Source: a virus. From it: a DNA stretch of 64,000 nt. Where the stretch lies: the UHGV virus genome UHGV-0098755. One strand, 5' to 3'. Below are positions 27,718 through 32,484 of this stretch, piece after piece (within the stretch, counting starts at the first letter, position 1; every line of letters starts with the position of its first letter). The notes below the pieces were generated by a model, which worked only from the letters and a program-made list of their open reading frames with translations, was not told the origin of the DNA and ran no database searches. Made by a program: the position numbers and the translations under genes.

Positions 27718-27739
27718 ATGGGGACCTTTCGGTCCCCAT
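27718..27739. terminator. bidirectional terminator hairpin between convergent gene 54 and the 96-aa ORF
   Basis: ATGGGGACC-TTTC-GGTCCCCAT followed by T-rich run. Confidence 0.65.
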
Positions 27740-27743
27740 ATTT

Positions 27744-28034
27744 TTATTTGCGGAATGAAATGAAAGCAGAAACTGAAGCAACTAAACTGTCTTCAATATA
27801 AACTTCAATTTTTACCGGAGCTTCTGACTCAAATTTACCTGTTACTACACCCTGAAAAATACTTTCAGTCTGTTCTGGCTTTGAAAAATTTTCAGAAGGA
27901 AAAATTCCAAACTTTTTATCTGTTCCGAAAATTTTGATAAATTCATCATAAACTGCTTCATTAAAAGCGTTATCAGCAGGAATAACGCCTTCAACTACAA
28001 GTTCTTGACCTAAAAAGCGTAAAGAAGATTTCAT
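27744..28034 (-). CDS. hypothetical early protein (96 aa)
   Basis: ATG at 28034 with GAGGA 8 nt upstream; preceded by an early-promoter-like element shared with alc. Confidence 0.5.
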   Translation of the reverse strand: MKSSLRFLGQELVVEGVIPADNAFNEAVYDEFIKIFGTDKKFGIFPSENFSKPEQTESIFQGVVTGKFESEAPVKIEVYIEDSLVASVSAFISFRK

Positions 28035-28041
28035 TTTGTGT

Positions 28042-28095
28042 TCCTCATGTTATGTCAGTAAGTCTACTATAACACAACACGAGGGACTTGTAAAC
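28042..28095 (-). promoter_or_regulatory. early-type promoter plus conserved leader (repeat copy 1), drives the 96-aa ORF
   Basis: - strand GTTTAC-N17/18-TATAGT then leader with GAGGA; 54-bp block 53/54 identical to 43083-43136. Confidence 0.5.
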
Positions 28096-30152
28096 TACAT
28101 TTTGAACTTTTTAGACATTCCGTTAATGTTAACCAAAGAAGCTAAGATTTGAGAAACTTCGTTTTCCTCTTCTTTTGATTCTTCTACAAGGAATTGATTA
28201 AATCCAGCCATTGGACGAACTTCACCAGTTTCCATTAAATGGTCTCCATCATATACTGATTCTTCTAATTGTTCAGAAGGAGGAACGATTGTACCTTCGA
28301 TTAGATACTTGTTATAAGCAGTTTCTTTCATAAAGTACGTACTTACTTTATTAATCTTCAGTAAAATTCCACGCGGTAAAATAACTTCAGCTTCTGATGG
28401 AAATCCTGTTAAATGACCTGGAACGATAACTTTGATTCGCTCAGCTCCTTTAATTACCATACCCACGCTAGTTTCAGCATTTTCATTAGCGTATGTAGAA
28501 TGACTACCCATATGCATCAAATCTTCTGCATCAACAGAACCTTCTCCTTCACCAGAAAATACTGCGCCGGAATCATCTAGAGCCATATAGTTTTTACCAT
28601 GCTCGCCGAAGATATTTGGTTTAAGCGATGTAGATACGAAGTTCTTGAAATAGAACATTTTGTTTTCAATGTTATGACGCAAAGTTTTAAAGGTAACTTC
28701 TTGTCCACGGTAAAGTGTAGTTCCTGGAGGAAGAACTGAACCTTTAGCGAATGCAGAATCCAACGTCTCGATGTGCTTAATAGCTCGTTCCATATATTCT
28801 TCACGGGTAGAATCAGGTTTACCCAAAAGGAATGAGTTCATTTCAACATATGAATCTGCACAATAATCTTCAATTACATCAGATTCAGCTTGAGTTAATC
28901 CTTTTGGAGTTACTTCAATACTTGCATATTCATATGCCTGGGTAGCAGATTCATTAATCAATTTATAAATGCCATTCATTACAAATTGAATAATAGCTGT
29001 CTTTTCATCTGGCGTAGCTTTAGAACCTTTAACCAAATCATTGATAATTTTCTTAATAACATCAAAGCTGTTAGAAATATTAATATCAGCAAGATCGCTT
29101 AAAATTTTATCAGTTTTATAATCAAAGAATTCTTTATTCTTTAAATATTCTTGAGAACCTTGATATGTTATATCGTTCTGCAACTTGATGGATGGATCAC
29201 GTAAACGTGCATGGGCTAATGCAATATGATTTCGGAAACTTTCTAGTTCATAATCGTTAGATTTAAAACGAGAAGCACTCCTCATACCACCGATAGCTCC
29301 TTTGCTGAAGTTTGAACCAATCTGAATAACGCCAGAGTTCATTGGTCCTTCTGCTTTATATACCGGAACTTTAGATTCAAACTCTTGATATTTCTTAGCA
29401 GCGAAGCTATCACCCTGAAGTGAAGCATCAACAGTAGAATATTGAGCTTGTGCTGCTAATCGACGACTAATTTTAGTTTTCTGAATAACAGCTTGGTCCG
29501 TGCGCTTATCATTTTCTAAAGCAATAGAAGCAGCAACAGCGACAGCTTTAGGAACAGCATTACCTGTTTTAACGTCTACATAAACATCACCAACCTTTGA
29601 TTCAACTTTTGTGAATAACTCAGTTGAAATAGGAGGTACACCTGGAATGTCTTCTAAATTGGCATTTTTACGGTAAACCATAATATATGCATACTTTTTA
29701 TCATAGTCCCAGATTTCCTTTAAAAGAACATATCGACCTGCTCCTTTAGTACGTACTAAACGGTCAGCAATAACTTGCATTTGACGAGCAGCGCCATTTG
29801 TTTTACTCTTTAGTACACGGAATAAGCACGCGTCAATTTTATACTGTTTCATTGTTTGAAGAGCAGTATCAAAAACAGCATTAATGACGCCAATTGGATT
29901 TCCACCCAAGTTTCTAAGCTTAACCAGTGATAATTTCTCATTAACACCTATCATTACGATATGCATCATTTTATCGCCCGGCTTAACGTTTTTATTCGTA
30001 TCACCGCCAGAGGTGTATGTACAAAATCTAAATCCAGGAAGCACGCTTTCTTCGCCGGCTTGAATAGCAAAAATTTGTGGTATTTTATGCTTAGGATTTA
30101 AGTTAACAACCGGCGCCGAAGCGCCGTCAAATAATTCTGTAATAAGTTCCAT
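28095..30152 (-). CDS. alt: Alt-type mono-ADP-ribosyltransferase (685 aa), downstream copy
   Basis: N-terminal MELITELFD... packaging/cleavage-type signal; C-terminal R-S-E ART motifs (LYRGQ, FVSTSL, EAEVILPRG). Confidence 0.75.
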   Translation of the reverse strand: MELITELFDGASAPVVNLNPKHKIPQIFAIQAGEESVLPGFRFCTYTSGGDTNKNVKPGDKMMHIVMIGVNEKLSLVKLRNLGGNPIGVINAVFDTALQTMKQYKIDACLFRVLKSKTNGAARQMQVIADRLVRTKGAGRYVLLKEIWDYDKKYAYIMVYRKNANLEDIPGVPPISTELFTKVESKVGDVYVDVKTGNAVPKAVAVAASIALENDKRTDQAVIQKTKISRRLAAQAQYSTVDASLQGDSFAAKKYQEFESKVPVYKAEGPMNSGVIQIGSNFSKGAIGGMRSASRFKSNDYELESFRNHIALAHARLRDPSIKLQNDITYQGSQEYLKNKEFFDYKTDKILSDLADINISNSFDVIKKIINDLVKGSKATPDEKTAIIQFVMNGIYKLINESATQAYEYASIEVTPKGLTQAESDVIEDYCADSYVEMNSFLLGKPDSTREEYMERAIKHIETLDSAFAKGSVLPPGTTLYRGQEVTFKTLRHNIENKMFYFKNFVSTSLKPNIFGEHGKNYMALDDSGAVFSGEGEGSVDAEDLMHMGSHSTYANENAETSVGMVIKGAERIKVIVPGHLTGFPSEAEVILPRGILLKINKVSTYFMKETAYNKYLIEGTIVPPSEQLEESVYDGDHLMETGEVRPMAGFNQFLVEESKEEENEVSQILASLVNINGMSKKFKM

Positions 30153-30155
30153 GAT

Positions 30156-32246
30156 TTATCCTTGAACGAACTTGTAAGGCATGTTTGCAATATCTATGCA
30201 AGACGCAATAATTCCAAGAGATGATTCTACTTTCTGTTTAACATTTGATGAAACAAATGATGCAAAGTCAACTCTATCTTCTATATCACCTGTCATTGTA
30301 ACCAATTCACCAGTTTCCATCAGATGGTCACCGTCATAAATTACCGATTCGGTGAGTTCTTCCGTAGTCATAACTTCAGCTTGAATGAGTTTTGTATTAT
30401 TAGATGTTGTTCCGTCATTATTAGAAGCATCAGTTATTTTATTAACTTTGACCATCAATCCGCGTGGTAGAATTACTTCAGCTTCTGTTGCTATTCCAAG
30501 ACTTCCTGGATATACAACATTAACTTTATGAGCTCCATCAATTGCCCATCCTATTTGAACTTTAACGTATTCAGGATTTTCTTTATACGCTCTTATTTCG
30601 TTTGGATTAATAGTTATTCCTTCTTCATTTTTATCAACTGTTAATTCATTACGAGCTTCTGGTTCTAAAAGACCGATACCAGCATGTGTAATTCCAAAAC
30701 GTCCAAAAATGATAGGAGTTAAAGAAGTAGATACAAAATTTCTGAAATAGAACACTTTATTTTTAACTAGTGCTTCGTATATAGGAGCAGTCATGCTTTG
30801 AGCACGATAAACTGTAATGCCTTCTGGTATACGGTCACCATTTTCAAAAGCTGAATCTAAATTATTTATAGCAGATTCAATTTCTTTTTCACTCATTACA
30901 TCATATCGTTCTGGATTGTAGCGGCCTAAAAGAAGATTATTGATGTCAGTATATCCTGATCCACAATACTCTCTAATGCCACGCTTTTGTGATGGAGTAT
31001 ATTTAGAACCATCACGGGCAATAGTAATATCAATCATTGGACCTGCACCAATTCCAGAAAAACTATAAATCATTCGTTTGAGGAATTTAGTTTTTGCTGC
31101 GTTCCAGGAATTTTTAGTTATTTCTTCCCAGACTTCATCTGGCTGCCCTTTACGAGTTTTATTATGTTTATCAAGCCAATTATCTTTATATTCTTCAAAG
31201 AATTTATTAACAGCTGCTGCGTATTTCTCTAAACATTTTATTGAAGTAGTTGGTTCATTTTTAATCGCATTAAGAATTACATCTTTAATTTTTTCAGAAA
31301 CTTCATTAACCTCACTTTTTGAAAAGAATTTATAATCATAGTGAAGTTCATCTGCAGTTCCTTCGGCAATGATTTTTGCTGCCTTAGTTTTAGAAGCTAT
31401 TGAATTAATTCCAAGTTTCATTTCTTCCGCTTCGGGAATTAAAGGAGCGGTAGCAGGTTTATTGAAATTAGCTGCGGTAGATTCATACTTCTGGAATAAT
31501 TCACTTTCAAATCTAGAAGATTCTAATGATTGACTTTGTGCAATTGCTCTACGGGAAATTTTAACTTTAACGATTACAGCTTGGTCAGAACGTTTATCAT
31601 TTTCTTGCGCAATAGATGCAGCAATTGCCTCATTTTTAGTTACTTGAGCTCCAGTATCTTTATTGATATAAACATCACCAACCTTCGATTCAACTTTAGT
31701 AAAGAGCTCGGTACTAATTTCCGGAACTCCTGGAATGTCTTCTAGTGATACGTTTTTGCGATGTATAAGAATATATGCATACTTTTTATCATAATCCCAG
31801 AGTTCCTTAAGAAGGACGTATCTGCCGCCTGAACGACTACGGATAAGTCTATCAGCAATAACTTGAATTTGTCGAGCTTGACCAGCAGTTTTAGACTTAA
31901 GAATACGAAGCATGCAGGCATCAATTTTATACTGACGCATTGTTTGCATTGCAACAGTAAAAACTGAATTGATGTAATTAATTGGGCTTGGACCGAGACC
32001 TTTTAATTTAGCAATTGAACCTTTAGCAGTTAATGTAAAAGGAACAATATGCATCATTTTATCGCCCATCTTTAAATCACGGTTAGTATCACCTCCAGAT
32101 GTATAGGTACATAAACGAAAACCTGGTTGTTCAATTGCGTCATCAACATGAACTGAAAAAATTTGCGGTATTTTCTTCTTTGGATTTAAGTTTGTAATCG
32201 GAAGAGTAGTATCTTCGTCAAATAATTCTGTAATAAGTTCCATCAT
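30156..32246 (-). CDS. Alt-type mono-ADP-ribosyltransferase paralog (696 aa from first ATG, 695 from second), upstream copy
   Basis: Similar first ~230 aa to the 685-aa copy, divergent middle, conserved R-S-E motifs (VYRAQ, FVSTSL, EAEVILPRG); late promoter on - strand at 32267-32274. Confidence 0.75.
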   Translation of the reverse strand: MMELITELFDEDTTLPITNLNPKKKIPQIFSVHVDDAIEQPGFRLCTYTSGGDTNRDLKMGDKMMHIVPFTLTAKGSIAKLKGLGPSPINYINSVFTVAMQTMRQYKIDACMLRILKSKTAGQARQIQVIADRLIRSRSGGRYVLLKELWDYDKKYAYILIHRKNVSLEDIPGVPEISTELFTKVESKVGDVYINKDTGAQVTKNEAIAASIAQENDKRSDQAVIVKVKISRRAIAQSQSLESSRFESELFQKYESTAANFNKPATAPLIPEAEEMKLGINSIASKTKAAKIIAEGTADELHYDYKFFSKSEVNEVSEKIKDVILNAIKNEPTTSIKCLEKYAAAVNKFFEEYKDNWLDKHNKTRKGQPDEVWEEITKNSWNAAKTKFLKRMIYSFSGIGAGPMIDITIARDGSKYTPSQKRGIREYCGSGYTDINNLLLGRYNPERYDVMSEKEIESAINNLDSAFENGDRIPEGITVYRAQSMTAPIYEALVKNKVFYFRNFVSTSLTPIIFGRFGITHAGIGLLEPEARNELTVDKNEEGITINPNEIRAYKENPEYVKVQIGWAIDGAHKVNVVYPGSLGIATEAEVILPRGLMVKVNKITDASNNDGTTSNNTKLIQAEVMTTEELTESVIYDGDHLMETGELVTMTGDIEDRVDFASFVSSNVKQKVESSLGIIASCIDIANMPYKFVQG

Positions 32247-32266
32247 AGCCTCTCTAGTGTTTATTC

Positions 32267-32274
32267 TATTTATA
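32267..32274 (-). promoter_or_regulatory. late promoter box TATAAATA (- strand) upstream of the tandem alt genes
   Basis: Reverse complement of + TATTTATA, ~21 nt before the alt-paralog ATG. Confidence 0.55.
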
Positions 32275-32279
32275 AAATT

Positions 32280-32297
32280 AAAGGCCCGAAGGCCTTT
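32280..32297 (-). terminator. hairpin (UUCG loop on - strand) between the 62-aa ORF and the alt late promoter
   Basis: AAAGGCC-CGAA-GGCCTTT overlapping the 62-aa ORF stop. Confidence 0.45.
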
Positions 32298-32484
32298 AAT
32301 AATCTATAGGTAAGAGAGTACGATATATTTCAAACTTTGGACCTTTTTCATAAGCATCAAATGTTTCTGTAAATTTATTATAAGCGTATGCATCTACAAA
32401 TTCGAGAATGACTTGTGATACAGAAGTAGAAACATCTCCACCTTCTTTTTGAGCCACGACAATTGTTTCTAAGTAAGCTTTCAT
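32296..32484 (-). CDS. hypothetical protein (62 aa), translationally coupled to gene 30
   Basis: ATG overlaps gene 30 TGA stop (ATGA). Confidence 0.45.
   Translation of the reverse strand: MKAYLETIVVAQKEGGDVSTSVSQVILEFVDAYAYNKFTETFDAYEKGPKFEIYRTLLPIDY

Follow-up and report, generated by a model that had tools for sequence, protein, structure and literature searches.

Two tandem Alt-family ADP-ribosyltransferase genes, alt and alt.-2, in a T-even phage genome

The viral genome UHGV-0098755, presented as a stretch of 64,000 nucleotides (nt) that is called the window here, carries two adjacent minus-strand open reading frames (ORFs) related to the ADP-ribosyltransferase (ART) Alt of phage T4. 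This arrangement raises the question of whether one virion delivers two such enzymes. A preliminary description, written from the sequence alone, had proposed exactly that, with both genes under one late promoter, and had left open whether T4 itself carries one gene or two. Wherever sequence could put that description to the test it was borne out, apart from an overstated identity of the N-terminal thirds. In T4, approximately 40 copies of Alt enter the prohead core, and the packaged enzyme passes from the head into the cell together with the DNA (PMC9026906); once injected, it ADP-ribosylates RNA polymerase and other host proteins (PMC5512222). We put at roughly 85% the probability that alt and alt.-2 encode two intact, late, head-packaged and injected ADP-ribosyltransferases, the pair found in T-even phages.

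The two genes lie as follows:

28095..30152, minus strand: alt.-2, a 685-amino-acid (aa) Alt paralog
30156..32243, minus strand: alt, a 695-aa RB32-type Alt ADP-ribosyltransferase (PF03496, phrog_802, 99% identity to RB32 Alt)

In the ORF list the alt frame spans 30156..32246 and encodes 696 aa from the first ATG or 695 aa from the MELITE ATG at 32243, and alt.-2 is the 685-aa frame directly downstream. The sizes and positions first proposed for the two ORFs were correct, as was the spacing between them, since the junction reads TAA-atc-ATG with a gap of 3 nt. Based on the region matches and on the gene order and annotation of phage RB32, the window is a Tequatrovirus (T-even) genome and the locus is the alt / alt.-2 tandem pair. 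A 4.8-kb region around the pair matches 542 phage records, of which 339 hold at least 80% of it, and the closest are RB3, RB5, RB6, RB7, RB9, RB10 and RB32 at 97.1-97.2% identity. The RB32 record runs 48, 54, alt.-3, alt.-2 (685 aa), alt (697 aa), alt.1, 30, with both large genes named "Alt-like RNA polymerase ADP-ribosyltransferase". The window has the same order, 48-54-alt.-3-alt.-2-alt-alt.1-30, which recurs in RB32, RB3, T2 and hundreds more Tequatrovirus genomes, so that the pair is flanked on one side by the DNA ligase gene (30) and alt.1 and on the other by alt.-3 and the baseplate genes 54 and 48. No record in the collection is identical to the window phage; a neighbouring 24-kb stretch is about 96% identical to its best matches.

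Sequence comparisons identify both proteins as Alt-family R-S-E ADP-ribosyltransferases with intact catalytic residues. Pfam PF03496 (ADPrib_exo_Tox) matches Alt at 2e-37 and Alt.-2 at 1.9e-19, and phrog_802 ("Alt-like RNA polymerase ADP-ribosyltransferase") covers residues 1-694 of Alt (2.8e-273) and 1-685 of Alt.-2 (2.9e-255). Both are homologous to T4 Alt from end to end, including the N-terminal non-ART domain, at 73% identity for the window Alt and 41% for Alt.-2. The catalytic motifs are TVYRAQ (R480), FVSTSL (S505-S507) and EAEVILPRG (E587/E589) in Alt, and TLYRGQ (R482), FVSTSL (S507-S509) and EAEVILPRG (E587/E589) in Alt.-2, encoded at these codons:

30804-30806, minus strand: Alt R480
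30723-30731, minus strand: Alt S505-T-S507
30477-30485, minus strand: Alt E587-A-E589
28707-28709, minus strand: Alt.-2 R482
28626-28634, minus strand: Alt.-2 S507-T-S509
28386-28394, minus strand: Alt.-2 E587-A-E589

Every motif quoted in the preliminary description was found at its aligned position, and careful alignment left neither copy short of a catalytic residue. In a family alignment of 20 homologs (42-95% identity to Alt.-2), R482, S507, S509, E587 and E589 in Alt.-2 numbering are invariant. A mutant of T4 Alt, E577A, is catalytically inactive (PMC11404850), and the residue concerned, the second Glu of the T4 E-M-E, aligns with E589 of both window proteins. The relationship to toxins was seen in two ways: Alt could be aligned to CdtA, iota toxin and CPILE-a across the YR and ExE motifs, and a profile of the 20 family members matched the C3-like ART 4xsg (E = 3.4e-08) with YR and (Q/E)xE aligned. 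As a single-sequence phmmer query, Alt.-2 matched nothing among the PDB sequences, so that the family profile was required, and neither protein had a match in NCBIfam.

The two paralogs share one plan, although they differ strongly in how well its parts are conserved. Each begins with a 6-residue propeptide ending in ITE. Then come an alpha/beta domain (about 230 aa), which is conserved, and an all-helical middle (about 170 aa), which is variable. The ART domain, which resembles those of C3, VIP2 and Vis, carries R, S-T-S and E-x-E, and the tail at the C-terminus starts at an L-x-E motif. Over their full length Alt and Alt.-2 are 42% identical (BLASTP, E = 6e-160). The N-terminal third had been called near-identical, which holds for the leader but overstates the rest: identity over the N-terminal 238 aa is 67.5%, and only the first 9 residues, MELITELFD, are wholly the same. 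The divergence described beyond this point was borne out, with about 12% identity at residues ~239-414, which are effectively unalignable, about 35% in the ART domain and about 42% in the C-terminal tail. Divergence is greatest in the helical middle and in the long stretch that separates S-T-S from E-x-E.

We then ask how the second gene would be expressed, for which these signals matter:

32277..32300, minus strand: UUCG-tetraloop hairpin with a 10-bp stem, ATTAAAGGCC-TTCG-GGCCTTTAAT, read from the sequence and overlapping the alt.1 stop
32267..32274, minus strand: late promoter box of the T4 type, TATAAATA, straight after the UUCG hairpin and 20 nt ahead of the first alt ATG
32249..32254, minus strand: Shine-Dalgarno (SD) sequence GAGAGG for alt, with spacings of 2 nt to the first ATG and 5 nt to the MELITE ATG
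30863..30870, minus strand: a further copy of TATAAATA, within alt (codons A-I-N-N) and 711 nt upstream of alt.-2
30159..30163, minus strand: SD sequence AAGGA of alt.-2; the 6 nt from here to its ATG include the alt stop TAA (30156-30158)

The late box proposed upstream of the first copy is indeed there, on the minus strand. By itself the octamer is weak evidence, since it occurs 19 times in the window where chance would give 8.6. T4, RB32, PEC04 and ZJUN4, however, all conserve the entire block, from the hairpin through TATAAATA and GAGAGG to ATGATG, and record OL960580 annotates a late promoter at this box. T4 alt is transcribed and translated late (PMC9697503). The hairpin is identical in those four phages and looks like a terminator or an RNA-end structure that ends the upstream unit (gene 30 / alt.1); OL960580 annotates it as a rho-independent terminator. 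Our terminator scan of the region made no call there because the T-run overlaps the extended stem. The alt.1 stop codon falls within this hairpin. The start of alt is a tandem ATGATG (32241-32246), as in T4. The second ATG is favoured by the SD spacing and by the databases, where T4 and RB32 are annotated with the MELITE start. The published mutant name E577A agrees with a count from the first ATG, the published protease sites ITE-6 and LTE-619 with a count from the second.

At the junction of the two genes, which is identical in PEC04 and T4, the SD-stop-ATG layout favours translational coupling or re-initiation at alt.-2. Neither the scan, the relatives nor OL960580 offered a comparably conserved promoter or terminator between alt and alt.-2. 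Following T4 Alt biology, a single late message, made by gp55-RNA polymerase from the promoter ahead of alt, would cover both genes. Translation of alt.-2 would start from its own SD and would probably be coupled to that of alt. The alternative that survives best is that alt.-2 is transcribed chiefly from the internal late promoter at 30863-30870. The octamer there is exact, lies on the correct strand, and is also present in RB32 and PEC04, with a pattern-only annotation in OL960580; yet it is absent from T4 and from ZJUN4, which has an intact alt.-2, and a site within coding A-I-N-N may have arisen by chance at about 8.6 expected copies per 64 kb. We therefore consider this alternative unlikely. 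The internal octamer is probably a coding coincidence, but it could be a minor internal late promoter, and a minor contribution to alt.-2 transcription is possible and compatible with read-through from upstream.

Is Alt.-2 built to enter the head? The prohead protease gp21 cuts T4 Alt at ITE-6, removing 6 N-terminal residues, and at LTE-619, removing 63 C-terminal residues (PMC5694885). ITE-6 is kept in both window proteins, and each has an L-x-E gp21 motif about 60 residues from its end, where the aligned site is LTE-632 in Alt and LEE-631 in Alt.-2:

32226-32228, minus strand: Alt E6 codon, N-terminal gp21 motif
30348-30350, minus strand: Alt E632 codon, C-terminal gp21 motif
30135-30137, minus strand: Alt.-2 E6 codon, N-terminal gp21 motif
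28260-28262, minus strand: Alt.-2 E631 codon, C-terminal gp21 motif

Both E6 and E631 are invariant in the 20-sequence alignment, and an AlphaFold2 model of Alt.-2 is disordered from residue 629 on, where the predicted propeptide starts. On the T4 model, Alt and Alt.-2 would enter the prohead core, have both ends trimmed by gp21, stay in the head and be injected with the DNA. The tails after L-x-E occupy 28095-28262 (alt.-2) and 30156-30350 (alt) and open with an invariant block, Y634 D635 G636 D637 … E641 x G643 E644 in Alt.-2 numbering, which includes a second L-x-E (LME). Since this is conservation in a propeptide that T4 Alt discards, the block suggests a role before cleavage, for example in binding the core or in keeping the enzyme inactive in the producer cell.

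A protein made late need not be packaged, and Alt.-2 might instead act in the producing cell or solely as a component of the prohead core. Two further ARTs of T4, ModA and ModB, are left out of the virion (PMC5512222), a part as core protein besides the enzymatic role has been described for Alt (PMC11404850), and our literature search gave no proteomic evidence for Alt.-2 in virions. Against this stand the exact MELITELFD leader with ITE-6, an N-terminal domain 67.5% identical to that of Alt, and a C-terminal L-x-E site with the invariant YDGD..E.GE tail behind it. Because the leader, N-terminal domain and protease motifs make sense only for a prohead-targeted, gp21-processed protein, we regard an Alt.-2 that stays behind in the producer as quite improbable.

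The T4 genome answers the question of one gene or two: it has one intact alt and the decayed remnant of a second. NC_000866 contains an intact alt of 682 aa and after it two short ORFs, alt.-1 with 61 aa and alt.-2 with 67 aa, which the record itself describes as an old duplicate of alt's first part. These two ORFs correspond to codons 1 to ~113 of the window alt.-2 at 93-96% nucleotide identity, and phrog_23015 and phrog_15247 match Alt.-2 better than Alt. When the T4 segment (L001:1061-1459) was aligned to window positions 28062-30160, T4 was found to lack one A at 29993, which shifts the frame of alt.-2, and 1,699 bp (28115-29813), which removes its ART domain. This deletion ends at imperfect 9-bp repeats, CTAAA(G/A)AGT, at 29805-29813 and 28106-28114. 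Given these two lesions, the T4 remnant is a decayed full-length paralog and not a partial duplication. The window alt.-2, in contrast, is an uninterrupted ORF of 685 codons, colinear with RB32, PEC04 and ZJUN4, and has neither T4-type lesion.

The deletion was followed across the phage collection with an 80-nt probe over the T4 junction. Of 484 records with a match, 91 cover the probe in full, and in the remainder, T2 included, the match breaks at the junction; by tblastn, about 403 records encode an ortholog at least 80% identical to the 685-aa Alt.-2, many of them annotated "Alt-like RNA polymerase ADP-ribosyltransferase (x2)". By these two counts, roughly 80% of sequenced relatives carry both genes, which puts T4 in the minority. 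The preliminary description had raised the prospect that both genes are ordinary annotated orthologs of T-even reference genomes, and this is essentially what they are, T2, RB3 and RB32 among them. The pair is already known, being annotated in hundreds of records and mentioned in print. Nolan et al. [quoted passage not shown] In the literature searched for experimental work on the second paralog, these genomic mentions were all that turned up.

Both genes are under strong purifying selection and so are maintained: among Tequatrovirus orthologs, at dS 0.09-0.25, the ratio of non-synonymous to synonymous substitution rates (dN/dS) lies at 0.03-0.06 in alt.-2 and at 0.045-0.07 in alt. That alt.-2 is instead a redundant duplicate heading for loss, open but adding nothing beyond alt, draws on the frameshifted, 1.7-kb-deleted remnant in T4 and 90 other records and on the good growth of T4 without the gene, but it is the least credible of the alternatives in the face of about 400 records that keep alt.-2 intact at exactly 685 aa, a low dN/dS at dS up to 0.25 (88-96 synonymous versus 13-20 non-synonymous changes in the more distant pairs), invariant catalytic and cleavage residues, and a positional ortholog kept in another genus (JS98).

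The same selection analysis bears on alleles of alt. Compared with T4 Alt, the window Alt is 99.6% identical over the N-terminal 238 aa, 32% in the middle, 66% in the ART domain and 100% in the C-terminal tail. Because the ends are almost identical and the middle and ART domain divergent, the window gene is read as an RB32-type allele whose effector half has been swapped as a cassette. The mosaic zone covers window positions 30440-31520 (Alt residues ~240-600); whole-gene dN/dS between the window and T4 alt is 0.37, against about 0.05 among alleles of the same type. Alt alleles of T4 length (682 aa) also occur beside an intact alt.-2, for example in G9062.

The Dhakavirus JS98 allows the age of the duplication to be considered. 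It has the same tandem pair in the same slot, YP_001595323 and YP_001595322, both full-length. Between the window and JS98, the middle, ART domain and tail group by gene position, whereas the N-terminal domains (window 29439-30152 and 31530-32243; JS98 L003:1910-6124) group by genome, with identities of 67.5% within the window and 65% within JS98 as opposed to 42-47% between positional orthologs. This pattern suggests an old duplication, followed by ancient homogenisation or by lineage-specific constraint of the N-terminal domain. Recent gene conversion of the paralogs' 5' thirds was rejected because their nucleotide identity is only 68%, the longest exact runs being 27, 24 and 21 nt. No TATAAATA was present upstream of or within the JS98 tandem pair (L003:1750-6500), and judging from that segment a late promoter of JS98, if there is one, must be off the T4 consensus or elsewhere.

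What would two injected enzymes do? Known targets of T4 Alt are Arg265 of the RNA polymerase alpha subunit and many other proteins, and E-x-E marks the arginine-specific variant of R-S-E ADP-ribosyltransferases. As E-x-E enzymes, and by analogy with T4 Alt, Alt and Alt.-2 would mono-ADP-ribosylate arginines of host proteins at the onset of infection. Different target sets for the two are plausible because the middle is unalignable and the segment between S-T-S and E-x-E has diverged. For Alt.-2, we infer late expression, packaging, activity and targets from what is established for T4 Alt.

Several points weigh against reading alt.-2 as a second late, packaged and injected enzyme. The C-terminal cleavage of Alt.-2 is a prediction, as its site is LEE and not LTE. 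The structural model of Alt.-2 is of moderate confidence (mean predicted local distance difference test score 73.7), and lower in the ART domain between residues 510 and 560. Its loss from 91 of ~484 related records, including T4, means that the gene is dispensable in at least some hosts or in the laboratory. A separate transcript of alt.-2 could start from the internal TATAAATA (30863-30870), and the literature searched contained no virion proteomics, activity assay or transcript mapping for Alt.-2.

We speculate, tentatively, that Alt is a two-part cassette system, in which the N-terminal domain is a module for delivery via the head and the exchangeable middle/ART half sets the targets, and that Alt.-2 is a second injected ART with host targets of its own, possibly a defence system. 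The N-terminal module seems to stay matched to its own phage, as the two paralogs of one genome resemble each other there more closely than either resembles its positional ortholog in the other genus. Folds like this domain also head large uncharacterised proteins of unrelated big phages, with annotated Zeta-toxin or deaminase domains. If the idea is true, loss of alt.-2 from laboratory T4 would contribute to phenotype differences between T4 and T2-like phages.

The features next to the pair are these:

28066..28094, minus strand: T4-early-type promoter TTTACA-17-TATAGT with TG, abutting the alt.-2 stop, for alt.-3
27744..28034, minus strand: alt.-3, 96 aa, DUF5498 (PF17602, E = 5e-64; phrog_1739), syntenic with T4 and RB32
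27718..27739, no single strand: bidirectional terminator hairpin between gene 54 (plus strand) and alt.-3 (minus strand), from the terminator scan and likewise annotated in OL960580

The early gene alt.-3, which does not encode an ADP-ribosyltransferase, lies directly downstream of the late unit on the same strand, as judged from its own early promoter abutting the alt.-2 stop. This is the best sigma-70-like site of the region, with 10/12 matches, and it is conserved in T4 and annotated as an early promoter in OL960580; other sigma-70-like sites occur at the chance rate (20 found, 19.4 expected). The promoter drives alt.-3 and marks the downstream boundary of the alt/alt.-2 unit. C-terminal extensions of T4 Alt.-3 allow escape from the CmdTAC defence system (PMC11618068). 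On the other side, alt.1 (62 aa, 32296-32484) matches the Pfam family 'Phage blade protein' (PF24647, 2.4e-29).

Knowledge of injected phage ADP-ribosyltransferases comes nearly all from laboratory T4, which is without the second enzyme of about four fifths of its sequenced relatives. Because alt.-2 was lost from the model phage, this widespread second injected enzyme seems never to have been characterised. If Alt.-2 has targets of its own, the T4 model under-reports what T-even phages do to their host in the first seconds of infection. The value of the present analysis is that the pair is confirmed as ordinary and T4 is shown to be the exception.

Set beside known systems, the window Alt shares with T4 Alt (gpAlt, NP_049811, 682 aa) the locus, the promoter/hairpin block, the domain plan, the R/STS/ExE residues and both gp21 sites, and differs in having E-A-E where T4 has E-M-E. 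The orthologs of Alt.-2 are the alt.-2 products of RB32, RB3, RB5, T2 and about 400 more phages (e.g. YP_803136), which are likewise 685 aa long, 98-99% identical, and equal in position, orientation and 3-nt gap, with no differences of substance. In JS98, the downstream copy pairs with Alt.-2 (44% identity in the middle, 57.5% in the ART domain) and the upstream copy with Alt (60% in the ART domain), but the leaders are MTEQLNEVFE and MMENLNEVFD where the window has MELITELFD. T4 ModA and ModB are early proteins of about 200 aa that lack the Alt leader, the N-terminal domain and the gp21 sites. They are nonetheless phage ARTs of the same Alt/VIP2 clade as Alt (PMC5512222). The C3, VIP2, iota-CdtA, Vis and Certhrax toxins (PF03496) have the same ART fold and R, S-T-S, E-x-E signature as the Alt proteins. 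Compared with C3/VIP2-type toxins, Alt adds a phage-specific N-terminal domain of about 240 aa, a helical middle and termini removed by a protease, and whereas those toxins are secreted, Alt proteins are delivered from the phage head.

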